A stretch of 44,989 nucleotides of DNA. Source: a virus (Duplodnaviria; Heunggongvirae; Uroviricota; Caudoviricetes). Every line of letters starts with the position of its first letter. The first letter of the stretch is position 1. Below the pieces are notes generated by a model. The model searched no databases. It was not told where the DNA came from and saw nothing but the letters and a program-made list of their open reading frames with translations. Below, one piece after another: positions 3,891 through 43,943 of this stretch. The translations under genes and the position numbers were made by a program. The DNA lies in IMG/VR virus record IMGVR_UViG_2872703611_000005, one strand, 5' to 3'.

Positions 3891-3969
3891 GTTGTTTTAA
3901 CCTCATTACAGATTTAAGGGTGAACAAATCCCTGCCATTGCTGGCATATAAAATGAAACTGGATATTAA

Positions 3970-4173
3970 TTACGGCGCTGTTTTAAGTCCTGCCGGGATT
4001 TCGTTATTATCCATGTGAATAACTTTATCGACCGGATAGCAGTTACCGGGGATTTTTTGTTCTGCTGCGGCAGCCATGCATTCTTTCATTGAACCGTAAA
4101 TGTCAATAACCATGTCAACAGGCTCGCCAGTATTAAGAAAAACAGTCAGAGTGAGGGCAATAGCAGTATTCAT
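3970..4173 (-). CDS. Small hydrophobic protein downstream of dicB (YdfD-like position)
   Basis: 67 aa from internal Met (MNTAIALTLTVF...), hydrophobic N-terminus; stop of dicB overlaps its start. Confidence 0.45.
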   Translation of the reverse strand: MNTAIALTLTVFLNTGEPVDMVIDIYGSMKECMAAAAEQKIPGNCYPVDKVIHMDNNEIPAGLKTAP

Positions 4174-4358
4174 TGCCAGTATCCTTTTTGCATCGGGCGT
4201 AAACGTGCCAGCATTGAAAGAATGCATATTTTATTTAATAGCTCCCGTTCGTATTTTCTCTTATTAATGGCATCTTCAGTAAATACTGGGTTACTGATAG
4301 TGACACCAATTTCAAAACAACCTTCAGACGTATTGACGTTTGGTAATAACGTTTCCAT
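4170..4358 (-). CDS. dicB: Cell division inhibitor DicB (MinC-activating Kil-type protein)
   Basis: 62 aa METLLPNVNTSEGCFEIGVTISNPVFTEDAINKRK..., matches my recollection of Qin DicB nearly residue-for-residue. Confidence 0.85.
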   Translation of the reverse strand: METLLPNVNTSEGCFEIGVTISNPVFTEDAINKRKYERELLNKICILSMLARLRPMQKGYWQ

Positions 4359-4540
4359 TATCGCGTCCTCAACAATGAATTTTGTGATGCGGTGCCTGGT
4401 GCCTCCAGGTGACGTTAACCAGTTAATAATTAACGCCGGATACAGAGAACCCACCCATAAGAACCAATACGGAAGTCAACTGGCCTTTTTAACTGTTCCG
4501 CGTGCGCTGAGCCGCATTCACCGCATCACAAAATTCACTT

Positions 4541-4600
4541 TAAAAGGGGCGGGTATCATGGGAAAAACAAAACGGATACCCGCCAAAAGGTAATCAACAT
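4541..4600 (-). ncRNA. dicF: DicF-like small RNA with intrinsic-terminator hairpin, immediately upstream of dicB
   Basis: Minus strand reads ...TTTTGGCGGGTATCCGTTTTGTTTTTCCCATGATACCCGCCCCTTTT: 10-bp perfect stem (4548-4557/4575-4584) plus U-tract, resembling DicF 3' end; position conserved relative to dicB; ends approximate. Confidence 0.5.
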
Positions 4601-4924
4601 GGGTTGTTGCAGCGGGATTGTCACTCAGGCGTATGGTCAACCTGACAACCCGGTGGACATTTGCGAGGAACGGAGAACCCCCGCCATACTTACCGCCGCG
4701 CCATTTCGCGGAGTGCCACAACCGGAAGCGCACGGTCGACGAAAATTTAACGACAGGCTATCTATGAACCAGCAACCTCGCCGTGCGCTTTCGCGTTATG
4801 CTCTGACTTTTCAGAGAAATATCCTTTCAGTAAACTGTCAGTGCCGGATGCTCACCCGTGTCCGGCGCACACACTCCACCTCACCCGTGGAGAACTCCTT
4901 AATTACCAACCCTCAGGAGGGTGA

Positions 4925-5158
4925 ATGTTAAAATCAACGCTTATTGCTAAATGCCTTTATCAAAATCGCATGGTAAGCAGCATTTCAATAGGCGAGTCTG
5001 CAGTTAAAAGTATTTTCGAAGAGTACTTTCCCGGGCATGATTTTAATAAATGGAATACCAAATTACCGCCAGCAGTTTCAACGCGTATTCTGAAAGCAAC
5101 TGAAAGAGCAAGTACAATTCGCGTTAACTATTTCATTAAAGATTTGTGGGATCTTTGA
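4925..5158 (+). CDS. Hypothetical 77-aa protein, antisense to the early-left operon
   Basis: ATG preceded by AGGAGGG RBS at about 7 nt; AT-rich codon usage unlike neighbours; 3' end overlaps convergent 135-aa ORF. Confidence 0.45.
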   Translation: MLKSTLIAKCLYQNRMVSSISIGESAVKSIFEEYFPGHDFNKWNTKLPPAVSTRILKATERASTIRVNYFIKDLWDL

Positions 5159-5543
5159 TATCCACAGAGCCTAAAGTATGTGCATATGGATGTGCTATTG
5201 TGCGCCCTCGCAGATTTGCATCATTTTCTAAATTCACTGAACGAAACAGGGCATCAACAAGGCTCTGTACAATGCAAAGGCAATCGAAGACTGTCGCCGT
5301 TTCTGTTTTGATTGATGAAAGAACATGGCCATTCACGCAAACAGAAATTACCCGTTTATTAACATCGCTTTCCTGCTTTTGATTATCAGAACCATATAGC
5401 CCTGAAAAAGCATTGCGCACATTACGAACCATATTATCGATGGTTTCTTTTTTGGTGTATGCCGGGTCAATTTTCACCAGACTATCACCGAGTGTCGTTG
5501 CAGCAATTATCTGGATTTCTTTTGGTAAATCTTTAAATTCCAT
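5136..5543 (-). CDS. Hypothetical 135-aa protein (AT-rich insertion in dicB-type operon)
   Basis: ORF with GAGG RBS about 8 nt upstream on minus strand; follows the ydfC-like gene; roughly 40% GC; no family recognised. Confidence 0.5.
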   Translation of the reverse strand: MEFKDLPKEIQIIAATTLGDSLVKIDPAYTKKETIDNMVRNVRNAFSGLYGSDNQKQESDVNKRVISVCVNGHVLSSIKTETATVFDCLCIVQSLVDALFRSVNLENDANLRGRTIAHPYAHTLGSVDIKDPTNL

Positions 5544-5565
5544 TATTAGCCTCGTTGGTTAACCA

Positions 5566-5784
5566 TTAACGTGGGTATGTAATCATTCTGGCAATGCTTA
5601 ATGCCGCTGCTTTTTCCAGATTGGTGATATCCTGCTCCAGAGCGGACAGATTTTCAGCCTGCTTAGCCCTGGCTTCATTGGCCCATTTCAGGTCCTGCGC
5701 AGCCTTAATTTTCTGGTGCATCCACTCATAAAGTTCATCATCGGTATAGTCTGGCGCGATGATGACGGGTTCTCGTTTCTGCAT
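5566..5784 (-). CDS. ydfC: YdfC-like small protein
   Basis: 72 aa, size and position match ydfC in the Qin dicC-ydfABC-dicF-dicB operon; sequence identity not verified. Confidence 0.45.
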   Translation of the reverse strand: MQKREPVIIAPDYTDDELYEWMHQKIKAAQDLKWANEARAKQAENLSALEQDITNLEKAAALSIARMITYPR

Positions 5785-5813
5785 ACTGATTCCTCGCGGT
5801 GCTGCTTCGCTTA

Positions 5814-5942
5814 TCAGCCGTTAGATTTTGCCGGGCTGGAAAGCGCCTGTATAAACTCACTGAAGCTGAGAGTTTCTTCGCCTTTGGCAAGGCCTTCGAA
5901 GTATTCTTCGTAAGCCTTTTCCATGATTGTGTCGAAATCCAT
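5814..5942 (-). CDS. ydfB: YdfB-like small protein
   Basis: 42 aa MDFDTIMEKAYEEYFEGLAKGEETLSFSEFIQALSSPAKSNG translated by hand from the minus strand; start overlaps ydfA stop; below the ORF-track size cutoff. Confidence 0.6.
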   Translation of the reverse strand: MDFDTIMEKAYEEYFEGLAKGEETLSFSEFIQALSSPAKSNG

Positions 5943-5943
5943 A

Positions 5944-6099
5944 TCACTCACCTGAGTTTCTTTCCAGCCAGCGACGGGCACCATTTTCGGTTTTAAACGT
6001 TTTGCTTTTGGTATACGTCATCGCGGTGAACGTGCCGTCCTGGTTGGGAAACACGCCGTACACCAGAGATTCGTTGTTACCAAGATCGATAGTATCCAT
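5944..6099 (-). CDS. ydfA: YdfA-like small protein
   Basis: 51 aa from internal Met MDTIDLGNNESLVYGVFPNQDG...; first gene of the leftward operon next to the repressor gene. Confidence 0.6.
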   Translation of the reverse strand: MDTIDLGNNESLVYGVFPNQDGTFTAMTYTKSKTFKTENGARRWLERNSGE

Positions 6100-6210
6100 G
6101 TTGACCTCATTTCCCCTTAACGCCGGGTAGCGGAACTGTTTGCTGAGAACACCGTGCGGTGTCTTGATGGGTGGTAATTTAGTTTTCTCATGAGTGTTGG
6201 TCAAGTGCTT

Positions 6211-6230
6211 TTAATGAGAAAACTCAATAT
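6211..6230. promoter_or_regulatory. Putative DicA-type operator copy (TTGAG-N4-CTCAA palindrome) upstream of the leftward early operon
   Basis: TGAGAAAACTCAAT at 6215-6228, identical to the copy in the dicA/dicC intergenic region; a reverse-complement half copy AGTTTTCTC lies at 6181-6189. Confidence 0.5.
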
Positions 6231-6288
6231 TTAATGCAAAATAAAGCCAATACATTGAAATGTAAGGCTTTAAAATTTGTGAAGGGGA

Positions 6289-6696
6289 TTACTGATGTTT
6301 GTTACGTTTGCGAGCTTCTAGTAGCTCGGTGAATAGGCGATTAAAATTCTCAACGCGGGCACGGAGTTCGCTGATTTGTGCTTGCTGCTCTGATTTTGGA
6401 AGTGCGCGATACAATCGCAACATCTCCAACTCATCTTCCGATAAGTCTAAGGCGCTGTTGAGTGCAACTGGTGGATCTGGTGTTTTATCCTCGTCACCAA
6501 ACAGTATCCAAGTTGGTGAACATTGCAATACCTCAGCCAGGCGATGCAAATTTTGCCCACGCGGGGCTGTATGGTCGCTTTCCCATAGTGAAATTGATGA
6601 GCCAGATACGCCAGCGGCTTTGCTTAAATCGTTTTGACTTAAACCAACCTGTTTGCGTCTTTCTCTAATTCGTTGACCTAAAGTTTTCTCGTTCAT
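6289..6696 (-). CDS. dicA: Prophage repressor, DicA family (HTH_XRE, no LexA-like peptidase domain)
   Basis: 135 aa; N-terminal HTH (GQRIRERRKQVGLSQNDLSKAAGVSGSSISLWE) and C-terminal ...VLQCSPTWILFGDEDK... closely resembling DicA as I recall it. Confidence 0.8.
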   Translation of the reverse strand: MNEKTLGQRIRERRKQVGLSQNDLSKAAGVSGSSISLWESDHTAPRGQNLHRLAEVLQCSPTWILFGDEDKTPDPPVALNSALDLSEDELEMLRLYRALPKSEQQAQISELRARVENFNRLFTELLEARKRNKHQ

Positions 6697-11339: not shown

Positions 11340-11533
11340 ATCTTAGTTAAGTAGAATGACTGTGGGTGCTTGAGGCTATCTGTCTCAGGCATGAACACCA
11401 AAAGGCAGATAGAGAAAAGCCCCAGTTAACATTACGCGTCCTGCAAGACGCTTAACATTAATCTGAGGCTCAATCCATGCTGAACACATGTAGGTTAGCC
11501 TCTTACGTGCCGAAAGGCAAGGAGAAGCAGGCT
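11340..11533. promoter_or_regulatory. hok leader region, expected to carry the mok-like upstream frame and antisense Sok RNA
   Basis: Long leader upstream of hok with an in-frame upstream ATG at 11477; architecture typical of hok/sok loci; sok boundaries not determined. Confidence 0.4.
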
Positions 11534-11689
11534 ATGAAGCAGCAAAAGGCGATGTTAATCGCCCTTATCGTCATCTGTTTAACCGTCATAGTGACGGCAC
11601 TGGTAACGAGGAAAGACCTCTGCGAGGTACGAATCCGAACCGGCCAGACGGAGGTCGCTGTCTTCACAGCTTACGAACCTGAGGAGTAA
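11534..11689 (+). CDS. hok: Hok/Gef family type I toxin
   Basis: 51 aa MKQQKAMLIALIVICLTVIVTALVTRKDLCEVRIRTGQTEVAVFTAYEPEE, matches my recollection of E. coli HokD/RelF. Confidence 0.9.
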   Translation: MKQQKAMLIALIVICLTVIVTALVTRKDLCEVRIRTGQTEVAVFTAYEPEE

Positions 11690-17131: not shown

Positions 17132-17207
17132 GGCCCTTTAGCTCAGTGGTGAGAGCGAGCGACTCATAATCGCCAGGTCGCTGGTTCAAATCCAGCAAGG
17201 GCCACCA
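17132..17207 (+). tRNA. tRNA with CAU anticodon (Ile2/Met type)
   Basis: Hand-folded cloverleaf; GGCCCTT/AAGGGCC acceptor, anticodon loop CTCATAA, GGTTCAAATCC T-arm, 3' CCA encoded. Confidence 0.8.
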
Positions 17208-17214
17208 TCACATA

Positions 17215-17291
17215 CCGCCATTAGCTCATCAGGATAGAGCGCCAGCCTTCGAAGCTGGTTGCGCGGGGTTCGAGTCCTCGATGGCGGTCCA
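17215..17291 (+). tRNA. tRNA-Arg (anticodon UCG)
   Basis: Hand-folded cloverleaf; anticodon loop CTTCGAA, T-arm GGTTCGAGTCC, 3' CCA; exact 5' end approximate. Confidence 0.7.
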
Positions 17292-17304
17292 TTATCTGTA
17301 CCCT

Positions 17305-17381
17305 GCGTTGTTAGCTCAGCCGGACAGAGCAATTGCCTTCTAAGCAATCGGTCACTGGTTCGAATCCAGTACAACGCGCCA
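17305..17381 (+). tRNA. tRNA-Arg (anticodon UCU)
   Basis: Hand-folded cloverleaf; GCGTTGT/ACAACGC acceptor, anticodon loop CTTCTAA, T-arm GGTTCGAATCC, 3' CCA. Confidence 0.8.
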
Positions 17382-43359: not shown

Positions 43360-43943
43360 TGGCATTCAGAATGAGTGAACAAGCACGGACCATAAAAATT
43401 TATAATCTGCTGGCCGGAACTAATGAATTTATTGGTGAAGGTGACGCATATATTCCGCCTCATACAGGTCTGCCAGCAAACAGTACCGATATTGCACCAC
43501 CAGATATTCCTGCTGGCTTTGTGGCTGTTTTCAACAGTGATGAGGCATCGTGGCATCTCGTTGAAGACCATCGGGGTAAAACGGTTTATGACGTAGCGTC
43601 AGGGGACGAGTTATTTATTTCTGAACTCGGTCCGTTACCGGAAAATGTTACCTGGTTATCGCCGGAAGGGGAGTTTCAGAAGTGGAACGGCACAGCCTGG
43701 GTGAAGGATACGGAAGCAGAAAAACTGTTCCGGATCCGGGAGGCGGAAGAAACAAAAAACAACCTGATGCAGGTAGCCAGTGAGCATATTGCGCCGCTTC
43801 AGGATGCTGCAGATCTGGAAATTGCAACGGAGGAAGAAACCTCATTGCTGGAAGCCTGGAAAAAGTATCGGGTGTTGCTGAACCGTGTTGATACATCAAC
43901 TGCACCTGATATTGAGTGGCCTACGAACCCTGTCAGGGAGTAA
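43359..43943 (+). CDS. tfa: Tail fibre assembly protein Tfa
   Basis: 194 aa starting at ATG overlapping the stf stop (TAATG); lambda Tfa-like. Confidence 0.85.
43786..43943 (+). repeat. Direct repeat copy 1 (tfa 3' segment), paired with 44835-44989
   Basis: About 155 nt of close similarity between the 3' end of tfa and the 3' end of the downstream tfa fragment, flanking the methyltransferase gene. Confidence 0.7.

Follow-up and report, generated by a model that had tools for sequence, protein, structure and literature searches.

An accessory cassette, probably a non-contiguous operon, in the early-left operon of a lambdoid Escherichia coli prophage

We analysed the IMG/VR virus record IMGVR_UViG_2872703611_000005 (Caudoviricetes; 44,989 nucleotides (nt); the whole stretch is hereafter the window) and focused on two small, convergent genes in its early-left operon: an open reading frame (ORF) of 135 amino acids (aa) on the minus strand (5136-5543), read in the sense of the operon, and an ORF of 77 aa on the plus strand (4925-5158), antisense to it. 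The source is a lambdoid prophage of E. coli, and positions 4400-5800 match several chromosomes of enterotoxigenic E. coli (ETEC) at 100% identity. An earlier interpretation made from the letters of the window (hereafter the sequence-only reading) had assigned both ORFs to an acquired cargo module of about 1 kb, possibly with a defence or toxin-like function. Our results reveal an accessory cassette whose gene arrangement fits a non-contiguous operon, with two orphan protein families and a leader that is not in Rfam.

Gene content and boundaries of the cassette

Both ORFs have the coordinates and strands first assigned to them, and their expression signals are as described: the 135-aa ORF has a GAGG motif 6 nt 5' of its ATG, an AGGAGG ribosome-binding site precedes the ATG of the 77-aa gene, and the two 3' ends overlap by 23 nt (5136-5158). 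The claim of AT-richness also holds, with a GC content of 0.39 in the cassette (4912-5545) against 0.51 in the window, 0.55 in the adjoining stretch 4600-4911 and 0.48 in the neighbouring gene ydfC. In phage Tritos the operon is the same except that both ORFs are missing; Tritos aligns to 4300-4911 at 87% identity and to 5527-5900 at 95% identity, and homology ends at 4911 and restarts at 5527-5545. This alignment, together with 38 of 80 IMG/VR loci that have only a short gap at this place, limits the variable DNA to 4912-5545, i.e. 634 bp instead of about 1 kb. It consists of both ORFs, 13 nt with the ribosome-binding site of the 77-aa gene and 2 further nt, and is present or absent among otherwise collinear dicBF-type prophages.

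For the 80 IMG/VR loci whose YdfC is closest, we then measured the distance from ydfC to the GC-rich block that follows the cassette. The distances take discrete values: 20-21 nt where the slot is empty (38 loci), 403 nt with a lone 124-aa ORF (12 loci), 653-676 nt with the cassette of 135-aa and 77-aa ORFs (21 loci), 667 nt with the same cassette but a frameshifted 77-aa gene (2 loci) and 815 nt with a 201-aa ORF and a convergent 63-aa ORF (2 loci); the remaining five loci stop short of the GC-rich block. The junction of the empty site is clean (CTAA joined to GGTTGG), and the ribosome-binding-site sequence next to the backbone is common to the 77-aa and 63-aa variants. This comparison shows the cassette to be one of the alleles at an exchangeable slot, which lies between ydfC and the dicF leader of the Qin/dicBF-type early-left operon. 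We do not treat it as a simple insertion because the proximal part of the leader of the 77-aa gene persists, minus the ribosome-binding site, in the empty alleles; the site behaves as a slot in which DNA is exchanged or from which it is deleted. The notion of an acquired cargo module thus survives in part: the DNA is accessory, AT-rich and exchangeable and lies in a dicBF-type operon, while its insertion is not established. Scans for sigma-70 promoters and terminators found no such sites on the relevant strands of 4600-5545. Neither ORF matches a known conserved phage early protein, nor are they core genes of the operon, the slot being empty or otherwise filled in related prophages.

The 135-aa protein and its partner domain

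The 135-aa protein is a fusion of which only residues 58-135 belong to the conserved pair. This partner domain (78 aa; 5139-5372, minus strand), the operon-sense mate of the 77-aa gene, was delimited by homology to stand-alone proteins of 77-79 aa in Serratia and Klebsiella prophages (37-43% identity, E 1e-17), which are encoded convergent to homologues of the 77-aa gene. The N-terminal MEFKDLP domain (residues 1-57; 5373-5543, minus strand), predicted to form a helical hairpin, was delimited by the shared N-termini of its homologues. It is fused to the partner domain in E. coli and heads at least eight unrelated C-terminal regions at the slot: its homologues, of 112-212 aa, have only residues 1-55 in common, and matches to PHROGs 9419, 2151, 6937 and 33007 are limited to residues 1-72 of the 135-aa protein. 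PHROG 1363 (unknown function) matches with E 3.7e-47 over 1-130 of its 139 positions.

The AlphaFold2 (AF2) model of the 135-aa protein is of low confidence (predicted local distance difference test, pLDDT, 61) and suggests that a linker joins the N-terminal helical hairpin to a beta-hairpin with two helices, after which the tail is left unstructured. Invariant residues in the alignment of partner proteins (A5) are N71, G72, T80, D87, L105, E106, A109, G113, T115 and H118, the last three of which fall in the C-terminal tail that AF2 leaves unfolded. Going by this model, the conserved yet apparently unfolded tail would show a pattern typical of binding motifs. A PDB sequence-profile search with the partner family gave no match, and we rejected the partner as an N-like antiterminator as no arginine-rich motif was seen by eye.

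A 191-aa protein of Yersinia frederiksenii (L094:3212-3787, minus strand) begins with a YdfC-like region (38% identity to YdfC, E 8e-12) and continues with the partner domain, and Proteus and Morganella have a separate YdfC-like gene ahead of the partner. This fusion and this gene order suggest that the adjacency of ydfC and the partner predates the E. coli arrangement. We rejected ydfC as a member of the module: a crude search for an upstream small ORF gave a candidate in 2 of 48 diverse loci, one of them YdfC-like.

The 77-aa antisense protein

The 77-aa protein matches PHROG 10348 (unknown function) with E 1.1e-47 over positions 1-77 of 77. Its homologues form 33 clusters at 55-100% identity, mostly of 77 aa; those at 55-72% identity are nearly always 77 aa long and come from Klebsiella, Serratia, Yersinia, Xenorhabdus and Dickeya, and also from Morganella, Salmonella, Proteus and Photorhabdus. 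AF2 predicts a compact five-helix fold with high confidence (pLDDT 96.8, predicted template modelling score 0.85), for which neither a fold comparison with the PDB nor a PDB sequence-profile search gave a match.

Conservation of the convergent pair

The pair is found in early-left operons of lambdoid prophages from at least eight named genera besides E. coli. It is convergent, with an overlap of 23-26 nt, in Serratia, Klebsiella, Yersinia, Xenorhabdus, Morganella, Proteus, Photorhabdus and metagenomic prophages; the seven pairs examined from outside E. coli, and two Proteus loci as well, all have an overlap of either 23 or 26 nt. In every prophage context examined, the 77-aa gene is antisense within the early-left operon and convergent with a gene for the partner domain, and in most annotated contexts the pair lies no more than two genes from the repressor gene. 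Among IMG/VR loci, the partner is present at all 79 testable loci of the 77-aa gene. Conversely, 54 of 59 partner loci have a match to the 77-aa family (identity down to ∼35%), 52 of them convergent and the other 2 being short, displaced fragments; at several of the exceptions a different small antisense gene (i.e. the 63-aa or a zinc-ribbon gene) takes that place. Counted by retrieved locus, both ORFs are intact in 66 of the 74 copies from E. coli.

Across genera, the proportion of replacement differences (pN) is 0.12-0.31 in the 77-aa gene and 0.25-0.53 in the partner, against a proportion of silent differences (pS) of 0.6-0.9 at which silent sites are saturated. Low pN at saturated pS in both genes shows that they are real, constrained genes, beyond chance ORFs, and both are under purifying selection across genera. 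We consider, with much higher confidence than we attach to the full model proposed below, that the 77-aa gene and the partner domain form a conserved cognate pair.

The 23-nt overlap of the coding regions (5136-5158) is a near-palindrome, ATTAAAGAT-N7-ATCTTTGAT, which encodes I-K-D on both strands, near each C-terminus. Both transcripts could therefore form the same AU-rich hairpin. A similar inverted repeat lies in the Serratia overlap.

The leader of the 77-aa gene

Outside E. coli, the 77-aa gene is preceded by a conserved leader of ∼75 nt (hereafter the canonical leader) with a stem GCCUG...CAGGC, a loop ending in CCAC, then GGUGGUAUC, and a hairpin that has the ribosome-binding site as its 3' arm. 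A profile of this leader matches upstream of at least eight unrelated families of antisense ORFs, including the zinc-ribbon and 63-aa families. The arms of the ribosome-binding-site hairpin covary, i.e. CUUGG/CCAAG, CCUUG/CAAGG, CCUUC/GAAGG, CCUCU/AGAGG and UCUCUU/AAGAGA, with CUCCU/AGGAG in the window. From the leader alignment, RNAalifold recovered the CCAC/GUGG helix alone and missed the ribosome-binding-site hairpin because MAFFT misaligns this variable element; we therefore compared duplex energies of cognate and non-cognate arms in place of RNAalifold. Duplexes between the Shine-Dalgarno (SD) and anti-SD sequences average -8.2 kcal/mol for cognate against -6.5 kcal/mol for non-cognate combinations, and none of 5000 permutations reaches the observed value, although this count is no strict probability because the leader sequences are related. 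In the first stem and the CCAC/GUGG helix, pairing is at 85% and covariation modest. Rfam contains no match for the leader, and we found no description of it.

The leader of the window is of another, E. coli type (4717-4924, plus strand) and was recognized by its likeness to that of an unrelated N/KilR-type prophage (L243), in which the 210 nt ahead of an unrelated 68-aa antisense gene are 83% identical. Except for the SD region (4912-4924) it lies outside the variable DNA. It contains, on the plus strand, a stem (GCCGGA at 4843-4848 with TCCGGC at 4861-4866), a hairpin (4874-4892) and an anti-SD sequence CTCCT (4895-4899) that pairs with the SD sequence AGGAG (4915-4919). The link of this leader to the canonical one rests on their shared architecture and on locus L243. 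The sequence-only reading had described a GC-rich, hairpin-rich leader of 300 nt at 4600-4920. This stretch is not in the variable DNA: 4600-4911 is also found in prophages without the cassette and is thus backbone. Compared with shuffled sequence, it has only a modest excess of folding stability, with z = -1.5 for the operon strand and z = -2.5 for the plus strand. Of the stretch first described as leader, only the ∼210 nt nearest the 77-aa gene (4717-4924) behave as one, and this part is a real leader that is not specific to the cassette.

No LexA box was seen by eye upstream of the 77-aa gene. In the other genera, we do not claim the motif TGGTATCTT, which resembles an extended -10 element, as a promoter because it overlaps the covarying anti-SD arm.

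A 58-aa gene of the CsrA family directly adjoins the leader of the 77-aa gene in a Xenorhabdus prophage (L095:2725-2901, minus strand). CsrA proteins bind GGA motifs at ribosome-binding sites, and this neighbour could bear on regulation by the leader hairpin.

A second pair and other antisense genes

The 63-aa ORF found antisense in the 201-aa variant likewise represents a conserved family, whose members are antisense within N/KilR-type and DicA-type early-left operons, where they overlap sense-strand genes of 57 or 118 aa tail-to-tail by 29-36 nt. The 57-aa and 118-aa products show homology (E 5e-14 and 9e-9) to residues 150-201 of the 201-aa protein, which thus consists of the N-terminal domain, the first partner domain and a second partner domain. 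The switch to the 63-aa variant begins exactly at the edge of the 77-aa ORF. As the 63-aa gene is found with its own partner, including the fused form, cognate pairs move as units.

Many dicBF-type prophages contain a second gene embedded in antisense just upstream of ydfC, which encodes a zinc-ribbon protein of 66-68 aa (CPECG...CKNCG). It is found at L008:3208-3478 (minus strand) and at the same place in ∼47 other E. coli loci, the window being without it, and has the canonical leader in front of it (nhmmer E 3e-8). In L119, and by sequence also in L120, a zinc-ribbon homologue stands beside the partner in place of the 77-aa gene. Some IMG/VR prophages (L119, L136, L137, L140 and L142-L147) have two copies each of the portable leader with different antisense ORFs behind them, among which are a 67-aa zinc-ribbon ORF and others of ∼146 aa, 80 aa and 163 aa. 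A single early-left operon may therefore offer several slots for antisense genes.

Distribution of the cassette

The cassette is carried by 645 of 5426 complete E. coli genomes (∼12%), including O157:H7, O145:H28, O103, O111 and ETEC strains. It occurs in only 12 of 50,697 phage records, namely those of the PPompW prophages and of phage Evi, and only 4 of 185,579 species-representative genomes have a homologue of the 77-aa gene. An exhaustive HMMER search for remote homologues found 29 relatives among 1.84 billion representative proteins; its multi-repeat matches P0087 and P0104 were discarded as low-complexity false positives. RefSeq lists both ORFs as hypothetical proteins (WP_000920491.1 and WP_000394517.1), and we found no description of either gene in the literature under their accession numbers or under ydfC/dicF.

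Flanking genes and other features of the window

The left arm of the prophage, on the minus strand, consists of a helix-turn-helix repressor gene (6289-6696), DUF1391/ydfA, a small ORF, ydfC and the two ORFs considered here, followed by the GC-rich untranslated stretch, a terminator hairpin at the position of DicF, dicB (Pfam DicB, E 5e-38) and DUF1482; beyond DUF1482 lie a gene for an 823-aa exonuclease and then xis and int. The flanks of the slot, both outside the cassette, are ydfC upstream (5566-5784, minus strand; RefSeq annotation and PHROG 1744), which served as anchor of our survey, and the DicF-position hairpin downstream (about 4540-4592, minus strand), identified by alignment to Tritos DicF and as a terminator-like site. 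The DicF-like small RNA (sRNA) of the sequence-only reading is upheld as to position, while its sequence has diverged: the Rfam DicF model (RF00039) has no match in 3900-6300, even at E <= 1. We regard it as a diverged DicF variant because the aligned Tritos sequence is a canonical, annotated DicF. The 5' half and the loop of the hairpin (GGCGGGTATC...GATACCCGCC and then a T run) are unlike canonical DicF, and the variant may have a different set of targets.

In Qin, the operon (ydfABC-dicF-dicB) has a long untranslated region with dicF inside it, to which 4600-4911 of the window corresponds (PMC5069750). The window resembles the Qin dicBF operon in having DUF1391/ydfA, ydfC, a long untranslated region, a dicF-position hairpin, dicB and DUF1482; by contrast, the slot is empty in Qin-type and Tritos-type operons, and the dicF-position hairpin of the window is diverged and unrecognized by Rfam.

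Between this hairpin and the start of dicB (4381-4535, minus strand) lies a sub-threshold Rfam match to the Salmonella sRNA STnc100 (33.5 bits against a gathering score of 47, E 5.6e-05), in a block that is 80% conserved upstream of kilR in L243. Two ORFs within the GC-rich untranslated region (110 aa, 4599-4931, plus strand; 71 aa, 4518-4733, minus strand) have no match in Pfam, NCBIfam or PADLOC and only marginal, partial matches to PHROGs, and are most likely chance ORFs of GC-rich sequence. In a related E. coli prophage (L004:1694-2172, plus strand), a PaaA2/ParE toxin-antitoxin pair lies between the repressor and ydfA-like genes and is another accessory insertion in the same operon. Elsewhere in the window, Rfam matches at gathering score are a sok antitoxin RNA of a hok/sok-type locus (11364-11539, plus strand), three consecutive tRNA genes (17132-17378, plus strand) and IS009 (43702-43900, plus strand).

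Comparison with known systems

The closest parallel to the arrangement is phage phi80, in which taiEcA lies antisense within the lytic operon and adjoins the sense-strand counter-defence gene atiEcA (PMC11364771). TaiEcA is a defence protein that inhibits tail assembly and AtiEcA counteracts it, the two being encoded in a non-contiguous operon; the lysogen produces TaiEcA, whose level drops once the operon is driven, and binding of a Tai by its cognate counter-defence protein is documented for a Salmonella pair (PMC11364771). In both cases a prophage gene is reversed inside a lytic operon and overlaps a small operon-sense gene for a neutralizer, proven in phi80 and proposed here, and both systems are accessory to lambdoid prophages of Enterobacterales. 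By contrast, (i) TaiEcA has 204 aa compared to 77 aa here; (ii) in phi80 the overlap is head-to-head, 20 nt long and located in the Q-dependent late operon, while that of the window is tail-to-tail, 23 nt long and located in the early-left operon; and (iii) function, binding and timing are proven in phi80, while the roles here are proposed from sequence and predicted structure. No TaiEcA or AtiEcA homologue was found anywhere in the window. Read from the genes alone, the arrangement fits a non-contiguous operon, and no terminator-like site lies on the operon strand between ydfC and the dicF-position hairpin.

Morons are the mosaic cassettes of lambdoid phages described by Hendrix and colleagues; a moron in the classic sense is a single gene that brings a promoter and a terminator of its own. 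As in morons, the cassette is extra DNA between genes that are adjacent in relatives, differs from its flanks in base composition and contains a gene oriented for expression independent of the surrounding operon; variable presence and deviating composition are thus both found. In contrast to morons, it comprises two overlapping convergent genes, one of which is read within the operon, with no terminator between them and no promoter detected inside. An own promoter and terminator were not found, and the 13 nt between the cassette edge and the ATG hold the ribosome-binding site.

The pair also resembles type II toxin-antitoxin systems, i.e. two small co-inherited proteins, one compact and the other with a small domain and a conserved, apparently unfolded C-terminal tail. 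Unlike such systems, the genes are convergent instead of co-transcribed, show no homology to known toxin-antitoxin families and have the sense partner in a repressed operon; neither a co-transcribed operon nor a known toxin or antitoxin family or fold was found. Convergent control is known from temperate phages, e.g. the antisense oop RNA on cII of lambda and the face-to-face promoters of phage 186. These are likewise convergent units with a 3' overlap near the immunity region and possibly mutually exclusive expression, but they involve a non-coding RNA or core lytic and lysogenic operons, in contrast to the conserved accessory protein encoded here.

A proposed model and its alternatives

We tentatively propose, by analogy and in the knowledge that the proposal may well be wrong, that the cassette is a non-contiguous operon of an effector and its neutralizer, analogous but not homologous to Tai/Ati of phi80. 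In this model, the 77-aa gene would be transcribed counter to the early-left operon from its own structured leader, with translation gated by the hairpin that covers the ribosome-binding site. While the prophage repressor silences the operon, only the 77-aa product could be made. Once the operon fires, upon induction or infection, convergent transcription and pairing of sense and antisense RNA would reduce the 77-aa mRNA, and the partner, synthesized at the same time, would bind the 77-aa protein with its C-terminal tail and neutralize it. The 77-aa protein would then be an effector of the lysogenic phase, e.g. an exclusion or defence factor that is also harmful to the phage's own lytic growth, and the partner a lytic-phase antidote, as AtiEcA is for TaiEcA. 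The parts of the model that we infer are the timing of expression of each gene, the mutual binding of the proteins and what the proteins do; a defence or toxin role of the 77-aa protein is putative. That the genes are real, the slot exchangeable and the leader shared is shown directly by the sequences and merits much higher confidence than the model as a whole.

Several results weigh against the model. The sigma-70 scan found no promoter upstream of the 77-aa gene, its counts being equal to those for shuffled sequence, and the canonical leader profile has no match in the window; with the leader profile blank and no promoter, the 77-aa gene could be poorly expressed in E. coli. Within E. coli this gene has 9 replacement against 5 silent polymorphisms and two frameshifted alleles, i.e. 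polymorphism that seems close to neutral and shows little sign of constraint. One E. coli locus (L163) has an intact 77-aa gene next to a truncated partner, which argues against a strictly lethal 77-aa effector. Co-occurrence of the pair is to be expected in part from linkage alone, as the genes overlap physically. The comparison with phi80 finds no homology, since blastp and the A3 and A5 profiles gave only noise against TaiEcA (PHI80_63) and AtiEcA (PHI80_64). The model of the 135-aa protein, as stated above, is of low confidence. Finally, Pfam and NCBIfam scans gave nothing for the 135-aa and 77-aa ORFs or the alternative C-terminal variants, and the PADLOC-DB 2.0 defence models gave zero families at E <= 1 for four ORFs; the early statement that neither protein belongs to a recognized family is thus borne out, PHROGs 1363 and 10348 both being of unknown function.

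Alternatively, the genes could be regulators of phage development without a defence role, which we regard as unlikely. The partner would be an early lytic factor acting in host takeover or in the choice between lysis and lysogeny, and the 77-aa gene or its transcription would tune the partner and kil/dicB by interference, as in oop/cII and phage 186. Beyond E. coli, the pair usually comes first or second after the repressor and PL region, a leader with such structure is a sign of regulated translation, and the overlap of 23-26 nt would be close to the minimum length of an RNase III substrate. Regulation of this kind sits poorly with a cassette that is dispensable, being absent from close and apparently functional relatives such as phage Tritos and from 38 of the 80 surveyed loci, and the act of transcription alone would be insufficient because the 77-aa product is strongly conserved as a protein.

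An improbable alternative is a toxin-antitoxin or abortive-infection-like pair, in which the 77-aa protein would be a growth-arresting toxin and the partner a labile, perhaps DNA-binding antitoxin that binds it through its tail, so as to stabilize the prophage or kill infected cells. The asymmetry of the proteins has this look, with a compact, well-folded 77-aa protein and a partner that combines a small beta/alpha domain with an unfolded conserved tail; in IMG/VR the 77-aa gene always occurs with the partner, which is itself found alone or beside frameshifted 77-aa copies; and other toxin-antitoxin pairs (e.g. PaaA2/ParE in L004) occur in the same prophage region of relatives. However, the genes are convergent and form no co-transcribed bicistron, no toxin or antitoxin was matched in Pfam, NCBIfam or PADLOC nor any fold in the PDB, and the copy with an intact 77-aa gene has a truncated partner. 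Moreover, an antitoxin could not shield the lysogen from a constitutive toxin because its operon is repressed there.

We likewise give little credence to two functionally unlinked hitch-hikers paired by overlap and co-inheritance, with the E. coli 77-aa ORF as a promoterless, decaying remnant: this would suit the missing promoter and blank leader profile in the window, the near-neutral E. coli polymorphism with its frameshifted alleles and the 63-aa swap that begins exactly at the 77-aa ORF edge, but the pair and its overlap are kept through silent-site-saturating divergence in at least nine genera, a second, unrelated antisense family is likewise paired with its own partner, and most E. coli copies (66 of 74) have both ORFs intact.

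Implications

The pair directly adjoins the toxic dicF and dicB genes, yet both proteins are listed as hypothetical, and the 77-aa protein has a confidently predicted fold without a solved relative. If the proposed effector-neutralizer model is false, the locus is an ordinary mosaic cassette. If it is true, the non-contiguous-operon logic of Tai/Ati would reach from the late to the early-left operon, the cassette would add two new protein families and a new cis-regulatory RNA leader, and the combination of a small antisense gene, a shared leader and a tail-to-tail partner would be a genomic signature for prophage genes of defence or host control.

A wider design is conceivable, though we think it rather doubtful, in which lambdoid prophages of Enterobacterales have early-left slots for antisense effectors that share one portable leader of ∼75-210 nt covering the ribosome-binding site, at least two families of which have a neutralizing tail-to-tail partner. 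It draws on the at least eight unrelated antisense families counted here (including the 77-aa, 63-aa and zinc-ribbon families) and on a leader absent from Rfam. Should this design be true, it would be a general modular way for these prophages to carry weapons for the lysogenic phase together with antidotes for the lytic phase.

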